DNA from: Candidatus Promineifilaceae bacterium
GTDB lineage: Bacteria; Chloroflexota; Anaerolineae; Promineifilales; Promineifilaceae
NCBI GenBank assembly: GCA_050301775.1
Contig: JBNKZT010000001.1
Location: 1 to 59,264, forward strand
DNA: 59,264 bases
Reading direction: 5' to 3'
Shown here: in pieces, positions 780-59,212 of the stretch
Layout of the letters: every line of letters starts with the position of its first letter
Numbering within the stretch: position 1 is the first letter of the stretch
The notes under the pieces: model-generated
What the model saw: only the letters and a program-made list of their open reading frames with translations
Told to the model about the DNA's origin: nothing
The model's database searches: none
Translations under genes and position numbers: made by a program

Positions 780-3700
780 ATGGACAGGAGGTCAATCATG
801 GGTACGTTGTCCTTGGCTCTTCTTGGTCGGTTTCAGGCTGTGTTAGATGGTGAAGTGCTGGCAGGTTTTCGCACCAACAAAGTCCAGGCGCTGCTCATCT
901 ACCTGGCGGTAGAACGAGCCAATCCCCATCGCCGCGAGTCGTTGATGACGCTGCTGTGGCCGGGCATGCCGGAACGCTCGGCGCGGCATAATTTGCGGCA
1001 GGTTCTCTATCATCTGCGGCGAGAAATTCCCGATTTGTCTCCTAAAGATAGTTCAGGTCAGACAACGGCCGTTCCCCTAATCCTGGCCAACCGTCAGACC
1101 ATCCAACTAAATCCACTGGCTGACGTTTGTATTGACACAGCCCAATTCGAAGCCCATTCGCGACAGGCACAAACCCATGACCACCTCGATTTGCTTACCT
1201 GCCGCGCCTGCCATCAGGAATTGGAAACGGCCGTCGCCCTCTACCGCGGCGATTTCCTGGCCGACTTCTACCTGGACGACAGCAACGAATTCGAAGAGTG
1301 GGCTGAGACTTCCCGGCAAACTTACCGCCGCAAGGCCCTCGATGCGCTGGAAACCTTGACAACCGTCAACACCCGCCAGAAAGCGTTCACTGAAGCCCGA
1401 GCCTTTGCCGAGCAGCAGCTTGAAATAGATGAACTGCGCGAAAGCGGCTACCGGCAGCTCATGGAAATTATGGCTCTCAGCGGGCAGCGTGAAGAAGCGT
1501 TGGCGCTGTACGAAACTTGCCGCCGCCGCCTGGCTGAAGAGTTGGGAATGGCCCCCACCACCCAAACGACGGCGCTTTACGAAAGAATCCAGGCCGGCGA
1601 CTTACGCTTTGACGTCCCCCAGGTTCAGGGTGTGCGCGGCTACGACCTCAAAGAAGAAATCGGCGAGGGCGCTTTTGGGACAATTCACCGGGCCATTCAA
1701 CCTGGCATTGGCCGGGAAGTGGCCGTGAAGGTAATTCGTCGCCGTTACGCCAATGATCCCGAATTTATCCGTCGTTTTGAGGCCGAAGCTCAAACCATCG
1801 CCCGCCTGGAACATCCCTACATTGTCCCCCTCTACGATTATTGGCGCGATCCGGAAGGGGCGTACCTGGTTATGCGCCTGCTGCGCGGCGGCAATCTGCT
1901 GGCTTCTTTAGAGGGCGGCCCCTGGGGAGTTGAGCCGACACTCAAGATGCTGGATCAGATCGCTTCTGCGCTGGCGGCTGCCCACCGGCAAGGCATCGTG
2001 CATCGGGACATCAAACCGGCCAACGTTCTTTTCGACGAAGCTGGCAATGCTTACTTGTCGGATTTTGGTATTGCCAAGAATTTGACGGGCGATATGCGGT
2101 TAACGGCCGTTGGCGCCATCATGGGCACACCCGACTACATCTCCCCGGAACAGCTACTCAACGATCCGGTCAGCCCTCAATCCGATCTGTACAGCCTGGG
2201 GGCTGTCTTGTACGAGACGTTGACCGGCGAAAAGCCCTTCCCCGATGCCTCCCTGGCCATGATCATCCAAAAGCAGCTCAACGAACCCATCCCACCGGTC
2301 AGCGCCAGCCGTTCCGATTTACCACGCCAGATTGACGCTGTCATCCAACGGGCGACGGCCAAAAGACCGCGTGATCGTTACCCGGATGTATTGGCAATGG
2401 CAGAAGCGTTCCGCCAGGCGACCCGTGAAAATGGGGTTCATGTGGCAGGGGTAACGCCTGTGCTGAGCGAAGTCGGAGTAGCCGTTCCCGCCGCAGTAGA
2501 CATCATCAACCCCTACAAAGGGCTGCGCGCCTTCCAGGAAGCCGACGCCGCCGACTTTTACGGCCGTGAAACCCTGGTCGAGCAATTAGTGGCCCGACTG
2601 GCCGAAAGCCGTTTCCTGGCCGTCGTCGGTCCCAGCGGCAGCGGCAAATCCAGCGCCGTTAAAGCCGGCCTGATTCCCGCCTTGCGTGAGGGGGCCGTCC
2701 CTGGTTCCGAAAAATGGTTTGTGGCCGAGATGGTTCCCGGCAGTTACCCGATGGAGGAATTAGAACTGGCCCTGCTGCCCATCGCCGTCGATCCGCCGCC
2801 CAGCCTGCTGGAACCGCTGCAAAAGGATAAGCGGGGGCTGCTGCGCACCGTCCGCCGCATTTTGCCCGATGAAGATGGGGCGCAATTGCTCCTGGTTGTG
2901 GATCAGTTTGAAGAGTTGTTTACGCTGGTCGAGGACGAAGCCCGACGGGTACATTTCTTAGACAGCCTGCTGGCTGCCCTCGCTGCGCCGCGCACGCCCC
3001 TGCGGGTGGTGGTGACGCTGCGGGCCGATTTCTATGATCGGCCGTTACAGTACCAGCCTGTTGGCGAACTGTTCAAACAGCATACGGAAGTCGTCCTGCC
3101 GCTAACCCAGGACGAATTGACCTGGGCCATTCAAGAACCGGCGCGGCGGGTTGGCGTGGGCATCGAAGAGGGCGTTGTAGCGGCGATGACTACCGACGTC
3201 GTTGACCAGCCCGGCGCACTGCCCCTGCTGCAATATGCGCTGACGGAGCTATTTGAGGAACGCCAGGATCATACGATGAGCCTGGCAAGTTACCGGGCGA
3301 TTGGCGGCGTGCCCGGCGCATTGGCCCAGCGCGCCGAGGAACTGTACGCCAATCTGGACTCAACCGAACAGGAGCGAGTTCGCCAGTTGTTCTTACGCCT
3401 GGTGACATTGGGCGAGGGCGTGGAAGATACACGGCGACGCGTGCGGTTGTCAGAGTTGGAAGCGTTATCGGTAAACGGTAAACAGTTATCGGTAAACGGT
3501 GATCGGTTGTCGGAAAACGAATTTCCGATTACTGATAGCCGATTACCGCTCACCAAATTCGGGGAACACCGTATCCTCACCTTTGACCGCGACCCCAACA
3601 CGCGAGAACCCACCGTCGAAGTCGCTCACGAAGCGCTGCTGCGCGAATGGCCCCGGCTGCGCCGCTGGCTGGATCAGAGCCGTGATGACATACGGATTCA

Positions 3701-6155: not shown

Positions 6156-9140
6156 ATGACCAAGCTATCCCTCTCGGTACTTGGCCCCTTTGCTGCTTCG
6201 TTGGATGAACGGCCGTTAACCCAATTCCGTACCAAAAGCGTTCAGGCGCTGCTGGTCTATCTGGCCTGCCAGCCGGAAGTCCACTCGCGCGAGCAGTTGA
6301 TGGCTCTGCTCTGGCCGGACATCCCGCAGCAATCGGCTCAGGGCAGTTTGCGCCAGACGCTGTACCTGCTGCGCAAAGCGATTCCTGAACTGCCATCACG
6401 CGATGGCAGCGGCATGGTTCCCCTCCTGCTGACTGACCGGCAGACGATACAGATGAACCCGAACGGCAGTTTCGACCTGGACCTACGCACCTTCACCGAA
6501 AAGCTCAAAGGGGACGAGTCTGGCTGGCCGGAAGCGGTTACCCTGTACCGGGGCGATTTCCTGGCCGATTTTTACTTACCAGACAGCGCTCCCTTTGAAG
6601 AATGGGCCGCCGCCCGCCGCGGCGATTTGCGCCGTCAGGTTCTGGATGCGCTGGACACGCTCACAAAAAACAATATCCAGTCCAATGACCTGGACACAGC
6701 CGAAACCTACGCCCGCCGCCAGCTAGAGCTTGACAACCTGCGGGAGAGTGCCCACAGGCAGTTGATGGAGATTTTGGCCAGGAACAGCCGTCGCCGGGCC
6801 GCCTTGTCCCATTACGAAATCTGCCGCCAACTTTTGCAAGATGAACTGGGTATTGAGCCTTCGGCCGAAACGCAGGCGCTCTACCAGCAAATACGCTCCG
6901 GTGCATCACCTTTCGTGCTGCCTACAAAGGGAACTCCAGACACAATTATCAAACCATCACCGAGAACTGTGGCCCATCCGCCCCACAACCTACCGACTCA
7001 GGTGACCGCCTTTGTCGGTCGGCAGCGTGAACTCTCACAGACTGCCAATCTACTTAAAGGCACTCGGCTGCTGACCTTAACCGGGCCAGGCGGCTCTGGC
7101 AAGACCCGATTAGCTTTGCAGCTAGCTGCGGCACAACTAACACACTTCCCCGATGGTGTTTTCTTTGTTTCTCTGGCTTCGCTCAAAGATCCACGGCTGG
7201 TCGAACAAACCATCGCCAGCATTTTGGATGTCAAACCAGTCGAGGGACAGAGCGTCCTGAAAGCTTTGCAAGATTATCTGAGGCCGAAACAGGTCTTGCT
7301 AATCCTGGACAATTACGAGCATTTACTTGATGCGGCGACCGTTGCCAGCAACTTGCTATCGTCGACCGACCAACTGCGGATTGTGGCCACCAGCAGGGAA
7401 CCACTCCAATTGCGCGGCGAACAACTTTACCCGGTGCCCCCCCTCCGGTTGCCTGGAGAAGACGCTGAGACCAAGGATGAAGTAGCCCAGGTAGAGGCTG
7501 TGCAACTCTTTCTCCTCCGCGCCCAGGCCACCGACCCCACTTTCCAATTAACCGACGACAACTTGGCAACTGTAGTGACCATCTGCCAACGCCTGGATGG
7601 TCTGCCCCTGGCCCTGGAATTGGCCGCTGCTCGTCTGAGTGCTTACTCGCCCGCCTTACTTTTGGAACGTCTCTGCAGCCGACTGAACGTGTTGACCAGG
7701 GGGCTGCGCGACTTACCCCATCGGCAGCAAACGCTGCGGGATACCATCGCCTGGAGCTACGACCTGCTTAACGATGACGAGCAGTTGCTCTTTTCTCGAT
7801 TGGGTGTTTTCGCTGGCCGTTGGACTTTAACCGACGCTGAGGCAGTCTGTAGTCCCGGCTTGTCTGTGGCGGTGGCCGATGGCCTCGAGTCACTTATCGA
7901 CAAGAATTTAGTGCAACTGGCGAGAGAAATGATTGACCAATCCTGCTATGACATGCTGGCCGCTATCCGCGAGTTCGCCGTCGAGCAACTCCAGATTGAT
8001 CAAGAAGAGTTAGCTGTTGTGGAACGGCTGGCTCGCCATGTGGCCAACCAACTGCCAGCGACAGTCCCCACCGACCGTTATGGCGCCAACCGGCAAATCT
8101 GGTTTAAGTTTCTGGCACTGGAGATGGATAATATTCGCACCGCATTGGCTTATTTTCTTGACCACGCCGAAGTAGAGCCAGTTCAGCAAATCATAGACGA
8201 GGTGTCCGATTACTGGGCGGATCGGCTTGTCGAGGAAGGCAGCGATTGGCTGGATAGGTTACTCGACCTGTTGGGCGACGACCCAACGGCCGCCAGAGGG
8301 AAGGCGCTTTTCCAACAAGGGAATCTATACGTTTATGGTTATGACAATCGGCGGGCAGCGGCTCTCTTGGAAGCAAGCACCCAATGTTTTCAAGCCTGTA
8401 ACGATCAGCAGGGTTTGTTTGACGCGCTTGATTCACTTGGGCTGGCTTATCACGCACTCGGTGATTACGAACAAATGCGCCAGACTTTTAAAAAGCTTAT
8501 TCCCCTCGCTGAGAAATTGGGCGACAACTCAGCCTTGCGTCGTGCGCTGTGTAGGAGTGTTTTGGGAACAACTGATTTTATCAAAGCGCGAGAGACCTTA
8601 TGTCGTTGTCTGGAACTGGCCGCCGAAGACGGTCAACCGGGTACTTTCTACAAGCAGTGGCTTGCCGATATTGAGATACGACTAGGCAACTATACCCTAG
8701 CCAGCAACATGTTACGAGAATGCCAGACAGCCTGGCAACAGATGGGCCAAGAGCGCAGCGTGGTCGCGATTCACTTTTTGCTGGGTGAGGCTGAGATAAG
8801 ACGTGGCCAACTCAACGACGCTGGTCGTATCCTAACAGAGGGCCTGGATTTAGTCAGCGACTTCGCCGACGTTGATTTTCCACCCTATTTTTACGAGCGC
8901 TTCGCCACACTGGCCGCTGCCCATGGGGATTTTGAGCGGGCAGCGCAACTGTTCGGAGCGGCCGAGGCCGCTCGTGAGCTGCCGGGGGCCACAGCCCTCA
9001 ACCCCGAGTATCGGCCAGCCTATGAGAAGGACGTGGCTGTTGTTCGGGCCGGGTTGTCTGAGGCGGCGTTTGCATCCGCCTGGCAGCGCGGTCGGGTTAT
9101 GAGTATTGAAGAAGCCACGGCTTTCGCACTTGGGAGATAA
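6156..9140 (+). CDS. AfsR-like regulator: SARP (wHTH+BTAD) + NB-ARC/AAA-type ATPase + TPR-like repeats
   Basis: Track ORF of 994 aa. The N-terminus is paralogous to the upstream gene (VLGPFAASLDERPLTQFRTKSVQALLVYLAC; YRGDFLADFYL; ESAHRQLMEILARNSRRRAALSHYEICRQLLQDELG). P-loop LTGPGGSGKTRLALQLA, Walker-B-like LLILDNYEHLL, and a helical repeat C-terminus. Confidence 0.9.
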   Translation: MTKLSLSVLGPFAASLDERPLTQFRTKSVQALLVYLACQPEVHSREQLMALLWPDIPQQSAQGSLRQTLYLLRKAIPELPSRDGSGMVPLLLTDRQTIQMNPNGSFDLDLRTFTEKLKGDESGWPEAVTLYRGDFLADFYLPDSAPFEEWAAARRGDLRRQVLDALDTLTKNNIQSNDLDTAETYARRQLELDNLRESAHRQLMEILARNSRRRAALSHYEICRQLLQDELGIEPSAETQALYQQIRSGASPFVLPTKGTPDTIIKPSPRTVAHPPHNLPTQVTAFVGRQRELSQTANLLKGTRLLTLTGPGGSGKTRLALQLAAAQLTHFPDGVFFVSLASLKDPRLVEQTIASILDVKPVEGQSVLKALQDYLRPKQVLLILDNYEHLLDAATVASNLLSSTDQLRIVATSREPLQLRGEQLYPVPPLRLPGEDAETKDEVAQVEAVQLFLLRAQATDPTFQLTDDNLATVVTICQRLDGLPLALELAAARLSAYSPALLLERLCSRLNVLTRGLRDLPHRQQTLRDTIAWSYDLLNDDEQLLFSRLGVFAGRWTLTDAEAVCSPGLSVAVADGLESLIDKNLVQLAREMIDQSCYDMLAAIREFAVEQLQIDQEELAVVERLARHVANQLPATVPTDRYGANRQIWFKFLALEMDNIRTALAYFLDHAEVEPVQQIIDEVSDYWADRLVEEGSDWLDRLLDLLGDDPTAARGKALFQQGNLYVYGYDNRRAAALLEASTQCFQACNDQQGLFDALDSLGLAYHALGDYEQMRQTFKKLIPLAEKLGDNSALRRALCRSVLGTTDFIKARETLCRCLELAAEDGQPGTFYKQWLADIEIRLGNYTLASNMLRECQTAWQQMGQERSVVAIHFLLGEAEIRRGQLNDAGRILTEGLDLVSDFADVDFPPYFYERFATLAAAHGDFERAAQLFGAAEAARELPGATALNPEYRPAYEKDVAVVRAGLSEAAFASAWQRGRVMSIEEATAFALGR

Positions 9141-46652: not shown

Positions 46653-46686
46653 GGCCCACAGATAAACGCAGATGAACCCGGATTTT
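46653..46686. repeat. Copy of the three-decamer element overlapping the annotated start of the next gene
   Basis: GGCCCACAGATAAACGCAGATGAACCCGGATTTTTT aligns with 11229-11263 (units CCACAGATAA/ACGCAGATGA/ACCCGGATTT). Confidence 0.55.
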
Positions 46687-48099
46687 TTGTCGGCATTTGA
46701 ATTGCAACCACCCGCAATGGTCGCTTTTGTTGGCGGCGGGGGCAAAACGAGCTTGATGTTTGCCCTGGCTAACGTGCTGCCAGGCCGGGTCGTGACGACA
46801 ACGACGACACGTATCTTCGCCGCCCAGATGAAGCTGTCACCGACGGTATGCTTTTTTACCGCAAAGGACGCGAAGAACGCAAAGAAAAACAAAGAAAACT
46901 TTGCGCTCTCTGCACCCTTTGCGGTTGATTCCTTCACAGAACTTTCAGACGCGCTTGATCGATTTGGGCAGTGTCTGGTGGTGGGGGCAGTAGGCGAAGG
47001 CAAAGATCGGGAAAAGGCGCTGGGCGTGCCGCCGACGCTGTCCGGCCAACTGTTGGCCCGCCCGGATGTTGATTTTGTCCTGGTCGAGGCCGATGGCTCG
47101 CGGATGCGGCCGATTAAAGCGCCCGCCGACCATGAACCGGTTATCCCGCCGGAGACGACACTGGTGGTGCTGGTGGTGGGGATTGATGCGGTCGGCGGCC
47201 CGGTTGGGGAAGTGGCCCACCGGCCGGAACTGCTATGTTCGGTAATTGGTAAGCCGTATTCGGTAAACCGTAGGCTGACGCCGAAGGATGTGGCCGTTTT
47301 GCTGACACATCCGCAGGGGGGATTGAAGGGCGTGCCGAAAAATGCACGGGTTATACCGTTCATCAACAAGGTAGAAACGGCCGATCAACTAACCGCCGCC
47401 CGCCAGATTGCCTATCACGCCTTACGCCTGACGCCTGACGCATCATGCCTTACGCAAGTCGTCATCGGCGCAATCCAGTCGCAGCAGCCTATCCGCGAGG
47501 TACACAAACGGGTAATGGCCGTTGTCCTGGCTGCCGGGCAGGCAAAACGCATGGGACAAACCAAGCAGTTGCTGCCGTGGGGGAAAACGACGGTGCTGGG
47601 GCAGGTGTTGCAGAATGTGGCGGAAACGGCCGTACACAATACCCTCGTCGTCACCGGTCATGATGCGGAAAAAGTTGAGCAGATTGCCATTGGAGAAGGG
47701 GCGGGAACTGTTTTCAATCCTGATTATGCTTCCGGTGAAATGGTGTCGTCGTTGCAAACGGCCGTTCGCCATTTGCCGGACCACGTCGCTGCCGTTCTCG
47801 TCATCCTGGCCGACCAGCCGATGGTGGAAACGGGAACCATCAACCAACTGCTTGAGGCATACTGGCAGCAAAAAAGCGGCCTGATTGCCCCTGAATTCCA
47901 GGGGCAGCGCGGCAATCCGGTTTTGATTGACCGCACTTATTTTGCTGAACTATTGGAATTGCCCCCCAGCGCGGCCCCCCGCCATTTGCTGCGCCATCAC
48001 GAAGCCGGCCTGCACCTCGTCCCTGTGACCAGCGACTCTATTTTGCGTGACCTGGATAATCCCGGCGAATACGAGCGTTGGCGTCCTGAAATCCCCTAA
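46672..48099 (+). CDS. Fusion protein: YqeC-like (selenium-dependent molybdenum hydroxylase accessory family) + MocA/MobA-like molybdenum cofactor nucleotidyltransferase
   Basis: Track ORF of 475 aa. N-terminal half: VAFVGGGGKTSLMFALA..VVTTTTTRIF..VEADGSRMRPIKAP..HEPVIP (YqeC-type). C-terminal half: VMAVVLAAGQAKRMGQTKQLLPWG..ADQP (MobA-like NTP transferase). The true start may be downstream (MVAFVGGGG), because the first codons lie in a repeat element. Confidence 0.8.
   Translation: MNPDFLSAFELQPPAMVAFVGGGGKTSLMFALANVLPGRVVTTTTTRIFAAQMKLSPTVCFFTAKDAKNAKKNKENFALSAPFAVDSFTELSDALDRFGQCLVVGAVGEGKDREKALGVPPTLSGQLLARPDVDFVLVEADGSRMRPIKAPADHEPVIPPETTLVVLVVGIDAVGGPVGEVAHRPELLCSVIGKPYSVNRRLTPKDVAVLLTHPQGGLKGVPKNARVIPFINKVETADQLTAARQIAYHALRLTPDASCLTQVVIGAIQSQQPIREVHKRVMAVVLAAGQAKRMGQTKQLLPWGKTTVLGQVLQNVAETAVHNTLVVTGHDAEKVEQIAIGEGAGTVFNPDYASGEMVSSLQTAVRHLPDHVAAVLVILADQPMVETGTINQLLEAYWQQKSGLIAPEFQGQRGNPVLIDRTYFAELLELPPSAAPRHLLRHHEAGLHLVPVTSDSILRDLDNPGEYERWRPEIP
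46858..46925 (+). repeat. Palindromic element inserted in frame in the YqeC-like half
   Basis: ACCGCAAAGG acgcgaagaacgcaaagaaaaacaaagaaaactttgcgctctctgca CCTTTGCGGT, with perfect 10-bp outer arms and partly pairing inner arms (ACGCAAAG/CTTTGCGC). It is translated as TAKDAKNAKKNKENFALSAPFAV. Confidence 0.6.
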
Positions 48100-52524: not shown

Positions 52525-53019
52525 TTACTTTTGATGAATCTGCCGGTAGCCGCGATTCCAGTAAATGAGCGGCGCTTCGTCGGGGCGGGGAACGGCGCTG
52601 GCTTGAACCAGCCCCAGATAGATGGTGTTGTTGCCGGTATTCAGGCGATCATAGATGGTGCAGTCCAGCCAGGCCAGCGCATTTTTGAGGATGGGGGCGC
52701 CGGTAACGGCCGTACCCCAATCCCCTATCCCAAACCGATCTTCATCCTTAATCCAGGCAAAACGGTTCGATAATTCCGTTTGGTCATGCGCCAGAATATT
52801 GACGGCAAAGACCGTACCTTCCTGTTCCAGCATATCATAAGCATTGTTCCGATGGTCAATCGTAATCATGATTAGCGGCGGTTTAGGCGAAATAGATGAA
52901 AAAGCTGACACTGTCAGGCCGTGGGGAACTTCGTTCCTCGGTGTTTTGACGGTGACAATGGTCACGCCGGCGGGGAAATGGCGCAGGGCTTCCCGGTAAT
53001 CTTCAGAACCTATAGTCAT
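52525..53019 (-). CDS. Flavin reductase (FMN-binding split-barrel, HpaC-like)
   Basis: Track ORF of 164 aa. ALRHFPAGVTIVTV..HGLTVSAFSSISPKPPLIMITI. Confidence 0.88.
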   Translation of the reverse strand: MTIGSEDYREALRHFPAGVTIVTVKTPRNEVPHGLTVSAFSSISPKPPLIMITIDHRNNAYDMLEQEGTVFAVNILAHDQTELSNRFAWIKDEDRFGIGDWGTAVTGAPILKNALAWLDCTIYDRLNTGNNTIYLGLVQASAVPRPDEAPLIYWNRGYRQIHQK

Positions 53020-54011
53020 AACGTTTCTCTTCCTTTATTGTTTTGGTCAGGCAGCCCTAAAAACGTGCGAACGACCGCCGCTATATCTGTTAAATCGTCG
53101 ATTTGACCGGCCCAATCCGCATGTTGCGGGCCAACGAGTATCGTCGGCACTGGATTGCGTGTGTGCTGGCGCTGTGATTTGTCTTCAATATTGCCGTGGT
53201 CGCTGGTGATGATCAGCAGGCCATGTTCATCGTCCCAGGTGTCCAAAAGGCCGCCCAGCGCGCCATCGATCATCTCCAGATGGACCACAGCCTGGGCCAG
53301 CGACCCGCGATGGCCGCTGCGGTCGCTGGGCCAATGTTCGAAGAAGCTGAAATGATGGGTTTGGGCAATGGCGGCAATACGTCCCCCGGCCTCGGCCAGA
53401 GTCATGATGGGGATGTCGTCGTAGCCCAGATGTTCCTGCCAGGCCTGACCGGTAAAACCAGGGCTGACCGCACGGCCGTTCCGCAAATCAGCCACATCCA
53501 TCAACGACAATCCGGCGCTGGTCGCCGCCAGAGGGACGCTGGAAAACAGCCGTTTACCGCTGTTGATGCCGTCAAAATAACCCTGTGGATAGGGGGTGAT
53601 GAGCGCCGCCCGGCCACCGGCAGCAGTCACGTCGTGAAAAAGGGTTCCCTGGTGGATGATGTCGGCAACGGCCGTATTCGGTTTTGGTCCGTAATGTTCG
53701 CCCACCAACTGGGGCACGTTGCGCCCGGTCAAAATGGCCGCCTGCCCGGTAGCGCTCTGCGGCTTGCCTGGCAGTCCTAAATTGGGGTCGGTGGGGATGA
53801 GGCTGGCCCGGTTGGTGATGATACGGTTTTTCCCTTGCAAAAACCAGTTGTCGCCCAGCAAATTAGTCAGGTTGGGGAGAACGGCCGTGACAAACGGGTT
53901 CACATCCGGGTCCGGCCCGCCCAGTCCAACGCCATCCATGAAAAAGAGCAGAACGTGGCGGGAGATTAGAGGTTGGAGATTGGAGATTGGAGATTGTTTA
54001 TTCTGTTTCAA
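53016..54011 (-). CDS. Alkaline-phosphatase-superfamily 'metalloenzyme' protein (phosphopentomutase / cofactor-independent PGM-like)
   Basis: Track ORF of 331 aa. LLFFMDGVGLG near the N-terminus, FFEHWPSDRSGH, and ITSDHGN. The first 17 codons (QSPISNLQPLIS) are encoded by a TTGGAGA tandem array, so the true start is uncertain. Confidence 0.7.
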   Translation of the reverse strand: MKQNKQSPISNLQPLISRHVLLFFMDGVGLGGPDPDVNPFVTAVLPNLTNLLGDNWFLQGKNRIITNRASLIPTDPNLGLPGKPQSATGQAAILTGRNVPQLVGEHYGPKPNTAVADIIHQGTLFHDVTAAGGRAALITPYPQGYFDGINSGKRLFSSVPLAATSAGLSLMDVADLRNGRAVSPGFTGQAWQEHLGYDDIPIMTLAEAGGRIAAIAQTHHFSFFEHWPSDRSGHRGSLAQAVVHLEMIDGALGGLLDTWDDEHGLLIITSDHGNIEDKSQRQHTRNPVPTILVGPQHADWAGQIDDLTDIAAVVRTFLGLPDQNNKGRETL

Positions 54012-54903
54012 AATAATCTAAATCAATTTTCTTAATCGTGTATTGAGCTACTTCACTTACTCCAACCCCATGATCTATCATCAATTCCGCCAATTGTTCG
54101 CCATCAATCAGTACGATTTTCTTCTCAATACGGGTTACGTAGTCTTTTGCAGTTTTAGAGAAATTCGAAGTTGTAATCAAAACGCCTTTTCTGGCTCTAA
54201 AACCTTCCAGACTGCCTGCGAAAGTCTGGACTACGGGGCGACCTACCGTTCCTTCCCACCTTTTTGCCTGAATATACACAACATCCAAACCTAATTTGTC
54301 TTCTTTAATGATGCCATCGATACCACCATCACCACTTTGACCAACTGCTTGACCTGCATCCTTTTTTGAACCACCATAACCCATTGCAACTAATAAATCC
54401 ACTACCAAGCTTTCAAAGAAACCAGGTGTGCAAATTTTAGCCAAACTTAATAGCTCTTGTGCAAGTTCTTGCCGAAGTTCTTGGTAGCTTGATTCTAGCG
54501 ATTCCTCTGGTGTTTGCTCAGAAACTGATTCGGGAGTTTCTTTATCATCATTTTGTTTTGATGATGTGCGGAATTCAACAAATTCGGGGAATTGTTTGAG
54601 AAATTTCAGGTCTATCTTTTCTGGTTTAGACTTTAATACTTGTTGACCGCGTTCTGTTATACGGAATTTTCCTCTCCCTTCACTTTTTAATAGATTTGCT
54701 TTCCTTAAATGGGTTGTTGCCCAACCAATACGATTATTGAATCTTTTCTGTCTTCCACTTGGCAGATGTTCTTTTAGATCTTGCTCAGTTAATTGAAACG
54801 TAATTGCCAGTGTTTCGATAACTTCACTGTTTGTATGCTCTTTTCCATCTCCCGCCAACATCAAAAGTGGCAACATTAAACTTTGAAAATCTGGAACGGC
54901 CAT
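53998..54903 (-). CDS. mrr: Mrr-type (type IV, modification-dependent) restriction endonuclease
   Basis: Track ORF of 301 aa. Mrr_N winged helix (PDFQSLMLPLLMLAGDGKEHT..RFNNRIGWATTHLRKANLL) and Mrr catalytic core (DGGIDGII..VYIQAKRW). It is visibly AT-rich relative to its neighbours. Confidence 0.9.
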   Translation of the reverse strand: MAVPDFQSLMLPLLMLAGDGKEHTNSEVIETLAITFQLTEQDLKEHLPSGRQKRFNNRIGWATTHLRKANLLKSEGRGKFRITERGQQVLKSKPEKIDLKFLKQFPEFVEFRTSSKQNDDKETPESVSEQTPEESLESSYQELRQELAQELLSLAKICTPGFFESLVVDLLVAMGYGGSKKDAGQAVGQSGDGGIDGIIKEDKLGLDVVYIQAKRWEGTVGRPVVQTFAGSLEGFRARKGVLITTSNFSKTAKDYVTRIEKKIVLIDGEQLAELMIDHGVGVSEVAQYTIKKIDLDYFETE

Positions 54904-54977: not shown

Positions 54978-55466
54978 TTACCTTAGGGTAGAAATTTTTT
55001 GAGTTACATCGTCAGGCGACAACGAACCGACATTGCGCCAGACTTCATCGCCCGATTTGTCGAACAGGATAAACGTGGGCGTAAAGCGGAAATTAAGCCG
55101 TTGTAACAAATCAGCGGCGCTGTCGTCTTGAACGTTGAGGCGTACGACCTGTACCGCGTCACCCCACTCTGCTTCTAGCCCATCAACGATGGGCCTGGCC
55201 TGGCGGCAGGCCGCTCAATAATCGGAATACAATTCCAGGAAAACGGGCTGGCCGGGATCGGCCAGCAGCATTTCCACCTCATTGGCCGCAGTCCCTTTGG
55301 TTTCGGTTTGGAGCAGAAAGTAACCCACGATAATCAGGGCCAGCAGCCCGCCGATGAGGGACAGACGACTGAGTAACGGCCGTTGCCGCCACACCACCGC
55401 CAATATCAACAAGCCCAATGGCAAAACCAGCGAGAACACGGCCGAATATTGATTAACGATTTGCAT
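54978..55466 (-). CDS. Membrane-anchored thioredoxin-fold protein with in-frame TGA at 55217-55215 in the redox motif (U-A-A-C): predicted selenoprotein, or a Cys-to-stop pseudogene
   Basis: Track ORF 55215..55502 ends ...PGQPVFLELYSDY at a TGA. My in-frame continuation is stop-free for 79 codons: AACRQARPIVDGLEAEWGDAVQVVRLNVQDDSAADLLQRLNFRFTPTFILFDKSGDEVWRNVGSLSPDDVTQKISTLR, then TAA at 54980-54978. This is the remainder of a thioredoxin fold (cis-Pro TPT). The likely start is ATG 55466 (MQIVNQYSAVF, TM helices). Confidence 0.6.
55178..55194 (-). promoter_or_regulatory. Candidate bacterial SECIS hairpin 20 nt downstream of the in-frame UGA
   Basis: Minus-strand RNA: UGA GCGGCCUGCCGCCAGGCCAG GCCCAUC GUU GAUGGGC. 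It has a 7-bp stem and a G/U-containing apical loop. A second small hairpin GGCCUG CCGC CAGGCC lies directly after the UGA. Confidence 0.4.
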
Positions 55467-55573
55467 AGCCGCGAGTGTAACGGAATCGTCCGGCAAGCAC
55501 AAACAGTTTCATGAGCGTTTCAGCTAATCAGCGATTCGCTGATCGCTGACCGGCTGACAAGCTGATGGCTAAT

Positions 55574-55591: not shown

Positions 55592-56023
55592 ATGAACGAC
55601 GAGTCCCTGATCATCATTAACGAACAGGTCAGCATTCCGGCGGCCGAACTGCAATTTCGCTTTTCCACCAGCAGCGGGCCGGGCGGCCAACACGTCAACC
55701 GCTCGGCGACACGGGTAACGCTGCTGTTTGACGTGGCCCAGTCGCCCAGCCTGGACGAGACCGTGCGCGCCCGGCTGCTGCAAAAGCTGGCCCCGCGCCT
55801 GGATAAGGAAGGCGTTCTGCACATCGACGTTCAAGAATCACGCAGCCAGTACCGGAATCGGGAAACGGCCGTGCTTCGCTTCCAACTCATCCTGGCCAAC
55901 GCCCTCAAACAGCCCAAAAAACGGCGCAAAACCAAACCCAACCGGGCCGCCATCGAGCGCCGCCTGACCGAAAAAAAGCAGCACAGCCAGCGCAAGCAAG
56001 AGCGCCGGCAAAGCTGGGAATGA
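55592..56023 (+). CDS. arfB: Alternative ribosome-rescue factor ArfB (peptidyl-tRNA hydrolase, GGQ class)
   Basis: Track ORF 55565..56023. The likely start is ATG 55592 (MNDESLIIINEQV). GGQ motif SSGPGGQHVNRSATRV and a basic C-terminal tail KKRRKTKPNRAAIERRLTEKKQHSQRKQERR. Confidence 0.9.
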   Translation: MNDESLIIINEQVSIPAAELQFRFSTSSGPGGQHVNRSATRVTLLFDVAQSPSLDETVRARLLQKLAPRLDKEGVLHIDVQESRSQYRNRETAVLRFQLILANALKQPKKRRKTKPNRAAIERRLTEKKQHSQRKQERRQSWE

Positions 56024-56122
56024 AGGGTTGAAGGAGTGAAAGGGTGAAGGGGTGAAGAGACTGTAATCAGCTATTCGACTATAAGACTATGAGATTACGA
56101 GACTACACAACTACGAGACCAC
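56022..56122. repeat. Two short-period (8-nt) tandem arrays filling the arfB - cyclase intergenic spacer
   Basis: GGGTTGAAG GAGTGAAAG GGTGAAGG GGTGAAGA, then GACTATAA GACTATGA GATTACGA GACTACACAACTACGA GACCACA, ending at ATG 56123. Confidence 0.5.
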
Positions 56123-56776
56123 ATGACTATTATTGACATTAGCCGCAATTTGGAAAAAGGGATGGCCGTCTGGCCGGGAGATACGCCCTATCATTTAGAA
56201 ATCGTGTTGGATCGACAGCACGGTAATGTGGTCAACCTGACAACGTTAACCCTGAGCGCCCACACCGGCAGCCACGCCGACGCACCGCGCCATTTTACGG
56301 ATGAGGGGTTGACAATGGAGCAAGTGGATTTACGGCCGTATTGGGGCCCCGCCCTCGTTGTTACCGTCAGCAAAACCGCCGGACCGCTGCTGCCGGCCGA
56401 TTTCGCCGCCACTGATTTGCGCGGCGCGGAACGGCTGCTGGTGCGCACGCCGCTGCAAGGGCTGCCCTTCGACCAGTTCCCCGACGCTGTGCCTCATCCC
56501 AGCCCGGAACTGGCCGACTTTTTGGGTGAGTTAGGCATCCTGCTCTACGGAACCGACACGCCTTCGATGGATGCCATCGACAGCAAAGACCTGCCCGGCC
56601 ATAATGCTTTGCTGCGCAACGGGATTGCTATTTTGGAAGGATTAGATTTGTCGGGGGCGGGGGACGGCCGTTACGAACTCGTTGCTCTCCCCCTAAAAAT
56701 TGTGGGCGGGGATGGCAGTCCGGTGCGGGCGGCGTTGAGGAGTTGGCAAGTTGGCGAGAAAGCGAGTGACGAGTGA
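56123..56776 (+). CDS. Cyclase-family protein (arylformamidase / kynurenine formamidase-like)
   Basis: Track ORF of 217 aa. Metal-binding motif HTGSHADAPRHF, plus GTDTPSMD and LPLKIVGGDGSPVRA. Confidence 0.85.
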   Translation: MTIIDISRNLEKGMAVWPGDTPYHLEIVLDRQHGNVVNLTTLTLSAHTGSHADAPRHFTDEGLTMEQVDLRPYWGPALVVTVSKTAGPLLPADFAATDLRGAERLLVRTPLQGLPFDQFPDAVPHPSPELADFLGELGILLYGTDTPSMDAIDSKDLPGHNALLRNGIAILEGLDLSGAGDGRYELVALPLKIVGGDGSPVRAALRSWQVGEKASDE

Positions 56777-56791
56777 AGCAGCCTCATCTAA

Positions 56792-56820
56792 TTGACATGT
56801 GACACCACATACGGTACTAT
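56792..56820 (+). promoter_or_regulatory. Sigma-70-type promoter TTGACA-17 nt-TACTAT with the predicted TSS at or next to ATG 56829 (leaderless hicA)
   Basis: TTGACA lies at 56792-56797 and TACTAT at 56815-56820. The ATG follows 8 nt later. Confidence 0.5.
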
Positions 56821-56828
56821 AAATCACA

Positions 56829-57074
56829 ATGACACAGCGAGAAAAACGGCTCGCCAAAATTCGCAACAATCCGAAAAATGTTCGTTTTGACGATCTGAAT
56901 CGCGTGCTGCGCGATTATGGATTTGAGCGGCGACAACCAAAAGGTGGCTCCAGTCATTATTTCTATTTTCTTGGCGACAGGCGCTTGACCATTCCGATGA
57001 AACGGCCGTTTGTGAAAGCCATTTACGTCAAGCAAGTTTTGAGCATCCTGGAGGAAATTGATGATGAACGATAA
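56829..57074 (+). CDS. hicA: HicA-family mRNA interferase toxin
   Basis: Track ORF of 81 aa. RFDDLNRVLRDYGFERRQPKGGSSHYFY. Confidence 0.85.
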   Translation: MTQREKRLAKIRNNPKNVRFDDLNRVLRDYGFERRQPKGGSSHYFYFLGDRRLTIPMKRPFVKAIYVKQVLSILEEIDDER

Positions 57075-57435
57075 AACAATTGAGTATTATTTGGACTTAC
57101 CCTATACCATTGAATTCCAACAAGATAAATCCGATCCGCAACATCCAGTATGGTTTGCCAAAGTGAAGGAACTGCCCGGCTGCATGACGGAAGCTGACAA
57201 AGTGGAAGAAGCCGCCGAGATGATTCAAGATGCAATGGTAACCTGGATTCAAGGGTCATTGGACGCCGGTCTTGCCATTCCCGAACCGCAAAGTGACTCA
57301 CAATACAGCGGCAAATTTTCGGTGCGCTTGCCTAAATCTTTGCACCGCGATTTGGTAGAAGTTGCCGAACGCGAGGGCGTTAGCCTGAATCAATACATTA
57401 ATGTCATGCTTAGTCGGGTCATTGGATCGCATTAA
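57058..57435 (+). CDS. hicB: HicB-family antitoxin with C-terminal RHH DNA-binding domain
   Basis: Track ORF of 125 aa. HicB fold (WFAKVKELPGCMTEADKVEEA) and RHH (GKFSVRLPKSLHRDLVEVAEREGVSLNQYINVMLS). It overlaps hicA by 17 nt. Confidence 0.85.
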   Translation: MMMNDKTIEYYLDLPYTIEFQQDKSDPQHPVWFAKVKELPGCMTEADKVEEAAEMIQDAMVTWIQGSLDAGLAIPEPQSDSQYSGKFSVRLPKSLHRDLVEVAEREGVSLNQYINVMLSRVIGSH

Positions 57436-57702
57436 CAACAATTTCTCTGAACTGAAATGAGCCGTTAACGTGTATTGTTTACGGCCGTGTTCTGGCTAGT
57501 CAAACATAAGAAGCGTGCCAGTATGAGCGATCAGTAATCCGAACAATCTGGAACCAGCGACGAGATTTGCGTCGATAATATCGAGGATAGCAAAGTTGTT
57601 GCGGTTGGCTGGCACAACGGCCGTTTCCCCACCCCCAGGCTGCTTTTTTTTATCTTTCACATCAGGGATTTACACAGCCCATTTTGGAGGTTAATCTCAA
57701 CT

Positions 57703-58252
57703 TTATGAACGAGTGAGTTCGCCCCTTAGGTCAGTTTGCATCAACGATTTAATGGTTGTGGTGGGTAAGTTCTGGCTAAAAAGATAAAACAGCTTGGCCA
57801 AAGCAGCTTCAACCGTCAAATCATAACCGCTATTCAGCCGCCAGAATCATGGCCGTGATCAGGTTTTCACGGGCATCATTGCGGGCTTCACAAAGCGGGA
57901 CTTGCGAGCCGGTCAAAATGACCGGCTTACGCAAACCCTCCAGCATAAACGGCAGCGCCGACGCGGTATAGGCCATCGTATCGGTGCCGTGTAAAATGAC
58001 AAACCCGTCATAATCGTCATACCGGTCGGCAATATCTTGGGCAATTTTCAGCCAATCACGCGGAGTCATATTGGCCGAATCAAGTAAGGGATTGTACTCG
58101 TGCAAGTCGTAGTCGGGCAGGGGCAGGTTGTCCAAGGTTGAAATTTGGGCCATTTGTTCCGCCAGGTAGCCCGGCGCAGGAGCGTAGCCATTGGGCGTCT
58201 TTCTCATGCCGATAGTGCCGCCGGTGTTGGCGATGTAAACGCGCTTGGTCAT
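57703..58252 (-). pseudogene. ansA: Type I L-asparaginase gene with an internal deletion of about 155 codons plus a frame change
   Basis: Track ORF 57830..58252 encodes residues 1-140 (RVYIANTGGTIGM, ILHGTDTMAYTASAL, PVILTGSQVP) and stops at TAG. In another frame, directly downstream, I read YDLTVEAALAKLFYLFSQNLPTTTIKSLMQTDLRGELTRS, then TAA at 57705-57703. That matches the extreme C-terminus of AnsA-type enzymes as I remember it (E. coli ...DMTVEATLTKLHYLLSQELDTETIRKAMSQNLRGELT). Confidence 0.7.
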
Positions 58253-58258
58253 GTTCTT

Positions 58259-59212
58259 TTACGGAAGTACGTTCACCGCATTGCGTGTTTCCACACCGCG
58301 CAGGCAGTCTAATACCTTGCTGACGATTTGGGTGGACACATTGCGCTGTGCTTCGGCTGTACTGGCTCCCAGGTGGGGGGTGTGCAGCACGTTGGGCAGA
58401 CCAAGTAAGGGATTGTCGGCGGCCGGTGGTTCGCTGGTGTACACATCCAATGCTGCTGCTTTCACATGCCCGTTTTGTAACGCATCAGCCAGGGCGGCTT
58501 CGTCAATTAGTTTGCCACGAGCGACATTGACGATGACAACGCCTTTTTTCATCTTTTTGATGGCCGAGTCGTTGATCATTTGGGTGGTTGCGGGGGTAAC
58601 GGCCGTATGCAATGTCAAATAATCAGCCTGTGACAAAACCTGGTCCAGATCAACTAATGACACATCCAACGCAGCCGCCTCTTCCGCCTTCACAAACGGA
58701 TCATGGGCCAGCACCGTCATGCCAAATGCTTTGGCTCGTTCGGCAACCAGGCGCCCAATCCGGCCCAAGCCGACAATGCCCAACACCTTGCCGAATAGTT
58801 CCGTCCCGGCAAACTGCGCCCGGTTCCATTCACCGGCGGCCAGCGAATTATGTGCCGGAACGGTGTACCGGGTGACGGCCAGCATAAGGGCCATCGTCTG
58901 TTCGGCCGTGGCTACACTGTTCGATCCTGGTGTGTTCATCACGACAACGCCATGATTGGTTGCGGCGGCGATGTCGATATTGTCTACGCCAATCCCGGCC
59001 CGGCCTATCACCTTGAGCTTTTTACCAGCGGCAATGACATCGGCGTCAGGCCGCGTATCGCTGCGAATAATCAGTCCATCGTACTCCGGGATAATGGCCA
59101 GCAATTCTTCTTTGCTCAAGCCAGTTTTCATGTCGTAGGCGGCATCGGCCGCTTTGTCCAGCATGTCCAGTCCGGCAGCGCCTAATTTATCAGAAACGAG
59201 AATTCGATACAT
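58259..59212 (-). CDS. serA: D-3-phosphoglycerate dehydrogenase, short form without ACT/ASB domains
   Basis: Track ORF of 317 aa. MYRILVSDKLG..., the NAD-binding motif GIVGLGRIGRLVA, and catalytic R/E/H positions (NVARG, HLGAST). Confidence 0.85.
   Translation of the reverse strand: MYRILVSDKLGAAGLDMLDKAADAAYDMKTGLSKEELLAIIPEYDGLIIRSDTRPDADVIAAGKKLKVIGRAGIGVDNIDIAAATNHGVVVMNTPGSNSVATAEQTMALMLAVTRYTVPAHNSLAAGEWNRAQFAGTELFGKVLGIVGLGRIGRLVAERAKAFGMTVLAHDPFVKAEEAAALDVSLVDLDQVLSQADYLTLHTAVTPATTQMINDSAIKKMKKGVVIVNVARGKLIDEAALADALQNGHVKAAALDVYTSEPPAADNPLLGLPNVLHTPHLGASTAEAQRNVSTQIVSKVLDCLRGVETRNAVNVLP

Follow-up and report, generated by a model that had tools for sequence, protein, structure and literature searches.

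A gene on the minus strand of the window, the whole 59,264-nucleotide stretch of contig JBNKZT010000001.1 (assembly GCA_050301775.1, a Candidatus Promineifilaceae bacterium) analysed here, very probably encodes a selenoprotein decoded through an in-frame UGA, namely a membrane-anchored thioredoxin-fold oxidoreductase of 162 aa with a Sec84/Cys87 redox pair. The same high confidence covers this reading as a whole, including the proposal that the ORF (55466–54978) yields one 162-residue protein and not a 95-residue fragment. The original prediction of a likely missed selenoprotein is supported by conservation of the TGA, a Sec/Cys pair among homologs, low dN/dS downstream of the TGA and a covarying hairpin. 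Coordinates below refer to the minus strand.

The open reading frame

Translation of window positions 55502–54978 gives ...PVFLELYSDY*AACRQARPIVDGLEAEW...RLNFRFTPTFILFDKSGDEVWRNVG...TLR*, in which the first asterisk is the only in-frame TGA (55217–55215) of an ORF running from ATG 55466–55464 to TAA 54980–54978. The complete ORF (54978–55466; 162 codons, counting UGA-Sec codon 84) is defined by its translation, by its match to PF00085 and by a frame that is open in all homologs. The TGA lies where it had been placed, after FLELYSDY, and the frame beyond it is indeed open, but the 79 stop-free codons originally counted there are one too many, as 78 sense codons are followed by TAA. The ATG at 55466–55464 (MQIVNQYS) is the likely start codon, since distant homologs all begin just before a conserved NQ[YFH]S; in the alignment of homologs this N-terminal motif (N-Q-Y-S, residues 5–8; 55443–55454) has N5, Q6 and S8 invariant, and most Cys forms carry NQYS or NHYS.

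It is almost inconceivable that the organism uses UGA as a sense codon throughout (translation table 4 or 25). Such a code would accommodate homolog P0002 and ten cluster representatives that are translated with W at codon 84, but these W calls are artefacts, since the DNA itself reads TGA and under table 11 the locus fails to translate to the query. Furthermore, TGA terminates 12 of the 37 window genes supported by Pfam or NCBIfam, so the code is not reassigned, and no other credible window ORF is split by TGA, a scan for such ORFs having returned only shadow-frame noise apart from the thioredoxin gene. For the window, reassignment is therefore already refuted. A scan for Cys-adjacent TGA codons across all loci was too noisy for use, its sole credible extra match being locus L033.

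Conservation of the UGA codon and of the downstream frame

The in-frame UGA (55215–55217), read as selenocysteine 84, would occupy the first, nucleophilic position of a U-A-A-C redox motif, and the TGC at 55206–55208 encodes Cys87, the resolving Cys of this UxxC motif and an invariant column. At codon 84, each of the 30 distinct homologous loci without Cys that were checked has TGA; the set, drawn from Chloroflexota/Anaerolineae MAGs and metagenome contigs together with one contig of 30 % GC (L040), extends over approximately 35–88 % protein identity and includes five relatives of the window gene (L001–L005; 47–88 %). Among 23 genome loci from different Chloroflexota/Anaerolineae MAGs, 21 have the TGA form, as do four metagenome contigs; loci L023 and L026 have TGC at the Sec84 codon. 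A profile search recovered at least 268 homologs of the same architecture, most of the family members found being from Chloroflexota/Anaerolineae, and CxxC is present in 120/120 full-length homologs among the matches listed. In homologs the codon is thus TGA or else TGC/TGT, which amounts to a Sec/Cys pair, and the proposal that the stop in Y-[TGA]-A-A-C stands where thioredoxins have their nucleophilic Cys is borne out by Cys at the aligned codon.

The frame 3' of the TGA is open in every TGA-form homolog, and neither a frameshift nor a further stop was found downstream in any homolog checked, the former having been named at the outset as the mark of a decayed gene. In 14 pairs, dN/dS across the 70 codons that follow the TGA was 0.07–0.21, equal to or below the upstream value; purifying selection continues across the TGA. 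In a single sequence, one TGC to TGA change, whether in a pseudogene or through a sequencing or assembly error, would give such a pattern, yet the TGA recurs in independent assemblies across the range of divergence given above, in genes that are free of further lesions and under purifying selection. Homologs with TGA or Cys, the intact frame, the low dN/dS and the covarying SECIS-like hairpin described below together lead us to reject a Cys-to-stop pseudogene; this explanation, already refuted by the comparative data, retains next to no probability.

Fold and predicted topology

When C is substituted for U, the protein sequence matches Pfam Thioredoxin PF00085 over residues 63–158 (E=1.3e-9; 38.4 bits, cut-off 23.5). 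The thioredoxin-fold domain, placed at approximately residues 72–162 (54981–55253) from this match, a structural model and Foldseek, contains the T-P-T cis-proline loop (residues 129–131; 55074–55082); T129, P130 and T131, like the U84-A-A-C87 dyad at the N-terminus of helix 1 of the fold, are invariant columns. The sequence beyond the UGA is therefore, as had been recognized, the remainder of a thioredoxin fold including its cis-Pro TPT. The structural comparison used an AlphaFold model of the Cys homolog P0018 (pLDDT 82.9), built from the Cys-homolog alignment, which superposes on thioredoxins in Foldseek (target-normalized TM approximately 0.8). In a profile search of the PDB the closest solved structures were classical thioredoxins, and the DsbD C-terminal domain was matched at E approximately 4e-12. 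These structures, together with a buried conserved acid, E78, at the position of thioredoxin Asp26, suggest a role as reductase or isomerase rather than as a DsbA-like oxidase.

The two N-terminal transmembrane helices of the original prediction are supported by the same model. Helix 1 is predicted from a hydrophobic stretch at approximately residues 9–26 (55389–55442; helix 9–27 in the P0018 model) and helix 2 at approximately residues 35–52 (55311–55364; helix 32–52 in the model). Between them lies a short Arg-rich loop, RQRPLLSR (55365–55388), predicted by the positive-inside rule to be cytoplasmic; from this the protein would be N-out/C-out, and its redox domain would probably lie on the outer side of the cytoplasmic membrane. 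A charge map of 24 homologs showed 3–4 K/R in the inter-helix loop and a net acidic segment after the second helix in most, with an ambiguous pattern in one subclade (the L017 group).

The fold also bears on whether the UGA is a true stop, in which case the product would be an 83-residue two-helix membrane peptide and the 3' region would be conserved as an RNA element or because it encodes a C-terminal protein with a start of its own. Database entries are compatible with this: in four independent assemblies gene callers begin at a TTG further upstream and give a 95-aa product, fragments of 84–86 aa are common, and in some homologs C-terminal ORFs of 65–75 aa are called from an internal Met. 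However, a thioredoxin fold needs both halves of the ORF, since strand beta1 is encoded, together with the first redox residue, before the UGA; the low dN/dS holds in the exact frame from immediately after the TGA; the window has no start just past the TGA, the first listed being TTG 55109, 35 codons downstream; and the Cys forms are single polypeptides. We consider a true stop extremely unlikely.

A SECIS-type hairpin within the coding region

Folding, conservation of pairing and peptide constraint all point to a SECIS-type hairpin at 55177–55195, where the coding sequence specifies (R)PIVDG(L). The arms pair G55194–C55188 with G55184–C55178 around a GUU apical loop (55187–55185), the outermost stem letters being G55195 and U55177; the stem begins 20 nt and the loop 27 nt downstream of the UGA. 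The 7-bp stem-loop GCCCAUC GUU GAUGGGC had been described exactly so, 20 nt past the UGA. In the window the stem is of 7–8 bp, the general form being 6–8 bp with a GUN loop, and the MFE is −12.8 kcal/mol (z=−4.8 against shuffles). Set against the published criteria for bacterial SECIS elements (loop, stem, spacing and MFE; PMC13188914, Fig. 2), the hairpin lies within all of them, with a 3-nt loop that starts G-U. The claim of a SECIS-compatible distance likewise holds, in that the loop position fits the published model. A second potential hairpin directly after the UGA (GGCCUG-CCGC-CAGGCC) was not counted in the element, because it is not conserved in register and is dropped by RNAalifold. 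A scan of the window at Rfam gathering thresholds gave no match.

Like the TGA and the intact frame beyond it, the hairpin was seen in each of the non-Cys homologs examined. Across the alignment, 94 % of cells in the hairpin columns pair, compared with 22–52 % when the partner is slid by 1–3 columns. Compensatory changes convert CCCAUC/GAUGGG to CCUGUC/GACAGG and also to CCUAUC/GAUAGG (pair types CG to UA and AU to GC), and the pairs are kept even though the changes alter the peptide (Ile to Val; Gly to Arg through the rare AGG codon). The peptide over the stem, P[IV]VD[GR], is found in 24/24 Sec forms as against 27/120 Cys forms (Fisher p=1.7e-13), and codon usage alone would be expected to give the stem in approximately 4 % of genes. 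As judged from these alignments, the stem peptide is constrained only in Sec forms.

Five Cys-codon relatives also retain the hairpin, with compensatory variants of their own, so the stem is not exclusive to UGA-bearing genes; among the Cys forms tested that have a compatible peptide, 5/5 show selection on such a hairpin. The stem may thus have another, or an earlier, role than Sec decoding. One possible explanation, which we regard as rather unlikely, is that the stem-loop formed by the P-[IV]-V-D-[GR] codons is an older, Sec-independent element of the family that happens to suit SelB; it might, for example, make translation pause at the moment when the two membrane helices emerge from the ribosome. 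If such an element already provided what SelB requires, a single change between TGC and TGA could switch the protein between Cys and Sec, and a rough NJ tree implies at least three such interconversions. Were this true, the family would be a natural system of repeated Cys/Sec interconversion on a pre-adapted SECIS element.

Proposed decoding of the UGA

The best-supported reading is that, when the ribosome arrives at the UGA of codon 84, the downstream hairpin would serve as a bacterial SECIS element and recruit SelB.GTP.Sec-tRNA(Sec), with the result that selenocysteine is inserted and translation goes on. The product would be a thiol/selenol-disulfide oxidoreductase tethered by its two N-terminal helices, in which Sec84 would act as the attacking nucleophile and Cys87 as the resolving residue, the oxidized state being a selenenylsulfide. 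We infer that it is Sec specifically that is inserted.

The conserved TGA, the open frame and the hairpin point to continued translation and not to the identity of the residue, so recoding of another kind has to be weighed: Cys could be inserted by a tRNA(ReC)-type tRNA with SECIS and SelB, or the hairpin could stimulate near-cognate read-through (Trp, Cys or Arg), giving a thioredoxin that is sulfur-only or inactive. Indeed, tRNA(ReC)-like tRNAs have been reported in genomes of Sec-using lineages (PMC13582414). Against this, insertion of Cys by way of UGA and a constrained hairpin has no evident gain over the TGC used by most members, replacement of the nucleophile by Trp or Arg would leave the motif inactive in a domain that is nevertheless under purifying selection, and the hairpin fits the SelB-type SECIS consensus (PMC13188914). 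Recoding to a residue other than Sec appears very unlikely.

Published work documents decoding of UGA as Sec by Chloroflexota, subphylum I relatives among them (PMC13326102, PMC13582414, PMC5736913). ARAGORN found no tRNA genes in the window and, in 23 related loci, ordinary tRNAs only and no tRNA-Sec; a six-frame regex scan of 410 kb (the window and the loci) for SelA (GDKLLGGPQ-type) and SelD signatures gave nothing credible. Thus, selA, selB, selD and tRNA-Sec were found neither in the window nor in the 410 kb, an amount of sequence too small for evidence of absence. The YqeC-family protein that the original prediction reported in the window is indeed encoded there, at 46672–48099, fused to a MobA-like domain. 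The link between YqeC and selenium that was drawn from it is real, but it is weak evidence, YqeC being a pointer to the selenium-dependent molybdenum hydroxylase trait and not to Sec decoding (PMC2276186).

Gene neighbourhood

A gene of the PF01676 metalloenzyme superfamily (53016–54011, minus strand; placed by family assignment and synteny) directly follows the thioredoxin gene in 15 other loci of the 16 compared for synteny, and in the window an insertion separates the two. The third gene of the conserved trio, a PF01613 flavin reductase (52525–53019, minus strand), is syntenic in 12 loci, and a TPMT-like methyltransferase is a neighbour in Cys forms. A 12.6-kb contig of GCA_050300535.1, reached through a window-encoded protein, breaks at the ArfB/thioredoxin boundary and adds only glycine-cleavage genes.

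Annotation and significance

Annotation errors for this gene are systematic. In public protein collections it appears as stubs of 84–95 aa, in some as a full-length protein in which the Sec codon is wrongly translated as Trp, and in others as orphan C-terminal ORFs; at least 16 of 62 classifiable clusters at 50 % identity look like Sec forms. No account of this membrane-anchored Anaerolineae family came to light in our literature searches. Its recognition would add a widespread family to the Chloroflexota/Anaerolineae selenoproteome and, on the predicted topology, would probably provide a case of a selenoprotein exposed on the outer side of the membrane. With one conserved hairpin common to Sec and Cys forms, the family is also a handy test case for the origin and persistence of SECIS elements during Sec/Cys exchange. 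The general picture of bacterial selenoproteins is unaltered.

Comparison with known families

Thioredoxin-fold proteins with a UxxC motif are the commonest kind of bacterial selenoprotein, and the protein described here belongs to this already well-known group, although no curated selenoprotein model matches it. Of the curated selenoprotein NCBIfam families only TsoB (NF045694) gave any score, 18.1 bits against a cut-off of 805, and the NCBIfam scan reported no match to SaoT (NF040730), HUIPC (NF047660) or VPGUxxT (NF041383).

Thioredoxin selenoproteins of the PF00085 type are known from Treponema denticola (Kim et al., 2015) and from Geobacter, Anaeromyxobacter and Carboxydothermus (PMC13188914, Table 1; PMC1794560). 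The window protein shares with them the thioredoxin fold, the putative Sec in first and Cys in fourth position of UxxC, a SECIS-type element within the ORF just downstream, the existence of Cys orthologs and PF00085 as best match. It differs in having Y-U-A-A-C instead of W-U-G-P-C, and the conserved NQYS motif and two predicted N-terminal membrane helices set it apart from soluble cytoplasmic thioredoxins; the equivalog model of canonical TrxA (TIGR01068; WCGPC) scored 44.6 bits, below its cut-off of 96.8. With the thiol:disulfide interchange selenoproteins of PF13098 (UxxC; Geobacter metallireducens type; PMC13188914, Table 1; PMC1794560) it has in common a UxxC thioredoxin-like domain that probably works outside the cytoplasm, and its match to PF13098 is borderline (27.2 bits against a 27-bit cut-off). 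Unlike these, its anchor is a two-helix hairpin and not a signal peptide or single anchor helix, and no DsbD/CcdA-type partner is encoded near the gene.

A thioredoxin-fold redox domain at, or tethered to, the outer face of the cytoplasmic membrane, as predicted for the window protein, is also the arrangement of TlpA, ResA, CcmG/DsbE and the periplasmic C-terminal domain of DsbD. NCBIfam matches to DsbD, TlpA and DsbE were weak and far below the family cut-offs (TlpA, 21 bits against 230; DsbE, 20 against 123), which places the protein outside these families, and its domain is a minimal classical thioredoxin without the insertions of TlpA/ResA. Compared with membrane-anchored Cys thioredoxin-like proteins in general, it would use Sec, and its family has other neighbours, namely the PF01676 metalloenzyme, the flavin reductase and, in Cys forms, the TPMT-like methyltransferase.

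Retention of a stem-loop at the SECIS position by close Cys-codon relatives has a parallel in the group 4 [NiFeSe] hydrogenases, whose Cys-type relatives keep SECIS-like stem-loops (PMC13582414). In the family described here, by contrast, the G-U of the loop is fixed by a Val codon, and so is kept in Cys forms as well, and the stems of the Cys forms have compensatory variants of their own, which argue for selection and not decay.

An in-frame TGA codon in a thioredoxin-fold gene

On the minus strand of the window, positions 55502-54978 form a reading frame that is interrupted once, by TGA at 55217-55215, between ...GQPVFLELYSDY and AACRQARPIVDGLEAEWGDAVQVVRLNVQDDSAADLLQRLNFRFTPTFILFDKSGDEVWRNVGSLSPDDVTQKISTLR, and that closes with a TAA (54980-54978). 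A gene caller would report only its first part, and this 95-aa product, from TTG 55502 to the TGA, is the one in the mechanical ORF list of the window. Since all distant homologues begin shortly before a conserved N-Q-[YFH]-S motif, found a few residues after the start, ATG 55466 (MQIVNQYS) is the likely start of this gene, here termed trx; counted from there, the ORF has 162 codons and the UGA is codon 84. With Cys substituted for the stop, the protein matches the Pfam families PF00085 (Thioredoxin; E=1.3e-9, 38.4 bits against a cut-off of 23.5) and, at threshold, PF13098 (Thioredoxin_2). The NCBIfam thioredoxin model is matched below threshold (44.6 bits against 96.8) and the DsbD, TlpA, DsbE and TsoB models far under their cut-offs, and no curated selenoprotein family scored above cut-off in the NCBIfam scan. 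Among PDB sequences, a profile search matched thioredoxins (E ~1e-16) and, at E ~4e-12, DsbD in its periplasmic C-terminal domain.

The two N-terminal transmembrane helices of the original prediction are seen as helices 9-27 and 32-52 in the AlphaFold model of P0018, a Cys-containing homologue (pLDDT 82.9), followed by a beta-alpha-beta-alpha-beta-beta-alpha thioredoxin domain that Foldseek places with the classical thioredoxins (target-normalised TM ~0.8). The conserved acid E78, within ...L-E-L/F..., occupies the place of the buried Asp26 of thioredoxin. Most homologues have 3-4 Arg/Lys residues in the inter-helix loop, and a charge map of the homologues shows an uncharged N-terminus and an acidic segment past helix 2, the pattern being ambiguous in one subclade. 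Because the loop is rich in Arg/Lys, the positive-inside rule would place the thioredoxin domain outside the membrane.

Conservation of the TGA and of the frame beyond it

A word-indexed protein search found four 95-aa proteins, each ending ...LELYSDY, and a fifth, of 165 aa, that has W in place of the stop; the DNA of all five has TGA at this codon, the W being a code-4 gene call from a locus that, on translation, gave no match to the query. Scanning one genome per species yielded 23 loci, all in MAGs of Chloroflexota/Anaerolineae, and five more contigs came from a metagenome scan; one of the five is the contig of locus L002. The context [YF]-TGA-x-x-C is present at 21 of the 23 genome loci and in four metagenome contigs, and the other two genome loci (L023 and L026) have TGC, which answers the question, posed with the original prediction, of whether homologues carry TGA or Cys here. 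In every case the frame stays open past the TGA until a stop ~78 codons on, and it encodes the conserved ...RLN[VI]...F[RQE][FY]TPTFI...W[RQ]..G... of the thioredoxin fold. Over 70 post-TGA codons dN/dS is 0.07-0.21 (Nei-Gojobori, 14 pairs), equal to or below the pre-TGA value; the decay expected of a Cys-to-stop pseudogene was not found. Given this conservation, the open frame and the low dN/dS, a pseudogene can be ruled out, as can a sequencing error, since TGA and open frame recur across homologous loci. A reassigned genetic code is likewise ruled out, because TGA is the terminal stop of 12 of the 37 domain-supported genes in the window and a scan of the window for split ORFs found no other credible TGA-interrupted ORF.

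Members with Cys at this codon (Cys forms) complete the Sec/Cys pair. A profile search with 16 family members returned at least 268 proteins; all 120 listed are ~160 aa long and have CxxC at the aligned position, usually as LLEFQSPYC[ILV][AG]C, under the source name 'thioredoxin family protein' (Anaerolineae, Anaerolineales, Chloroflexota). All 23 Cys forms examined at full length are built alike, with the NQYS motif, a pair of hydrophobic helices and then the thioredoxin domain. Searched exhaustively, a set of 1.84 billion cluster representatives yielded 1,491 matches at E<=1e-10; the best 150 include 46 full-length CxxC clusters, six clusters of 84-111-aa fragments ending exactly at ...LLEFQSPY, and 10 full-length clusters that have W where Sec would be. 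For one W cluster, P0209, whose DNA lies on a 30 %-GC contig (L040, ERZ23495111 scaffold_134912, 431-916), the library protein has Trp at the Sec codon but the DNA has TGA, with a matching hairpin, GCCUGU-AGUUG-AUAGGC; the nine further 50 %-identity W clusters are probably the same code-4 gene-calling artefact. A rough NJ tree requires at least three Sec<->Cys changes.

A candidate SECIS element

The hairpin described in the original prediction is present on the minus strand, with G55194-C55188 paired with G55184-C55178 around a GUU loop (55187-55185). A 2026 review gives, for bacterial SECIS elements, an apical loop 3-9 nt long whose first or second base is G, usually followed by G/U, an upper stem of 4-16 bp, a UGA-to-loop distance of 16-37 nt and an MFE of <= -7.5 kcal/mol (PMC13188914). 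The window hairpin agrees on all four, with its GUU loop, 7-8 bp stem, 27-nt spacing and MFE of -12.8 kcal/mol (-3.7 +/- 1.9 in shuffles). Among 25 distinct TGA-bearing sequences, six core pairs are the sole structure kept by RNAalifold, and 94 % of cells are paired in the specified 8-pair stem, a figure that drops to 22-52 % once the 3' arm is shifted by 1-3 columns. Pair 27-37 changes from CG to UA four times and to UG three times, and pair 28-36 from AU to GC four times and to GU twice. These compensatory changes alter the protein as well: CCC-AUC...GAU-GGG (P-I...D-G) becomes CCU-GUC...GAC-AGG (P-V...D-R), although AGG is a rare Arg codon in the window (3.4 %). In the loop, G and U are invariant and the third base is free (U, G, C, A). 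The stem peptide P[IV]VD[GR] occurs in 24/24 Sec forms versus 27/120 Cys forms (Fisher p=1.7e-13), in which the Gly position holds G, A, E, D, R, Q, N, S, K and others.

The hairpin is absent from L023 and L026, the two Cys-form loci of the window's own YSDY group. The stem is kept, at codons 8-13 after the first Cys codon, in all five Cys-codon homologues encoding P[IV]VD[GR] whose DNA was examined, each in its own version (loci L034, L035, L036, L038 and L039). The five versions found among them are CCC AUC GUG GAU GGG, CCC GUC GUC GAU GGG, CCC GUU GUG GAC GGG, CCU GUU GUG GAC GGG and CCU GUC GUA GAC AGG. Because codon usage alone would give the stem in ~4 % of PIVDG/PVVDG genes and ~0.2 % of those with PVVDR, the predicted hairpin is not exclusive to UGA-bearing genes, and the compensatory variants among Cys forms argue for continuing selection on it. 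A like situation in group 4 [NiFeSe] hydrogenases has been read either as a remnant of lost Sec or as a pre-existing structure that eased Sec gain (PMC13582414). In the trx family, the Cys-form hairpin may similarly be a fossil SECIS or a pre-adapted one, or it may be an element independent of Sec.

A different, redoxin-like ORF with a signal peptide and SNSW-TGA-GSC lies at ~1932 on a low-GC marine contig (L033, Ga0066849_10029819). After its TGA comes the hairpin ACCCAU-AGUUG-AUGGGU, over PIVDGLEADW, the same peptide as in the trx stem; the ORF probably encodes a further UxxC selenoprotein and shares an almost identical SECIS with trx.

Gene neighbourhood

In 15 loci other than the window, a PF01676 metalloenzyme-superfamily gene comes directly after trx; a flavin reductase gene is next in 12 loci and a divergent ArfB gene lies upstream of trx in nine, the window being included in both counts. 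The window has an Mrr-type restriction endonuclease gene (Mrr_N + Mrr_cat; 53998-54903, minus strand) between trx and the metalloenzyme gene, overlapping the start of the latter by 14 nt; as the pair is adjacent elsewhere, this gene seems to be a lineage-specific insertion. In all four Cys-form loci where downstream genes were called, trx has a TPMT/TehB-like methyltransferase gene directly behind it or overlapping its end (L034, 543-1139; L036, 6487-7101; L038, 6497-7057; L039, 6483-7049); the window's Sec-form clade is without it. Such families are associated with methylating selenium and tellurium compounds. An EF-G paralogue lies upstream of trx in L036, L038 and L039. No CcdA/DsbD, VKOR or cytochrome c maturation genes were found near trx in the window and related loci.

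Elsewhere in the window, 780-6125 (plus strand) encodes a 1781-aa protein in which a Ser/Thr kinase domain is joined to an nSTAND1 NTPase and a long array of WD40 repeats, and the next gene (6156-9140, plus) a 994-aa BTAD/AAA/TPR regulator. An asparaginase ORF (57830-58252, minus) of only 140 aa covers the N-terminal 140 of ~337 family positions and adjoins a HicB antitoxin gene (57058-57435, plus), so it may have been cut down when a toxin-antitoxin module inserted. GCA_050300535.1 (L037, contig JBNKXX010000185.1) has this short call too; the contig encodes a PGDH identical to that of the window, shares gene order over window ~55800-59212 and ends within the ArfB gene, just short of trx.

Selenium use and comparison with known selenoproteins

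A YqeC domain (PF19842) fused to a MobA-like NTP transferase domain (PF12804) is encoded at 46672-48099 (plus); its gene comes after one for an ATP-grasp ligase, and an adenosine deaminase gene lies nearby. The association of YqeC is with molybdenum hydroxylases that depend on selenium (PMC2276186), so the link drawn in the original prediction holds as a suggestion of selenium use but gives no pointer to Sec decoding. Genes for tRNA-Sec, SelA, SelB and SelD were absent from the window, from 23 related loci of 4-20 kb and from the 9 kb past the window end. Sec decoding is known in Chloroflexota from the 46-49 selenoproteins of Dehalococcoidia (PMC13326102), a [NiFeSe] hydrogenase (PMC13582414) and, in single-cell genomes of subphylum I, formate dehydrogenases containing Sec (PMC5736913).

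As judged from sequence, trx passes the computational tests for a selenoprotein, having a conserved UGA, a Sec/Cys pair, a consensus SECIS and coding constraint downstream, and the selenoprotein reading first proposed for it is thereby supported; current annotation does not recognise the gene. Among selenoproteins, the UxxC thioredoxins and thiol:disulfide-interchange proteins form established families (PMC13188914, Table 1; PMC1794560), and trx would work as they do. It differs from them in its two-helix membrane anchor and conserved NQYS motif, its Y-U-A-A-C active site, its probably outward orientation and its distribution, which is mainly in Anaerolineae.
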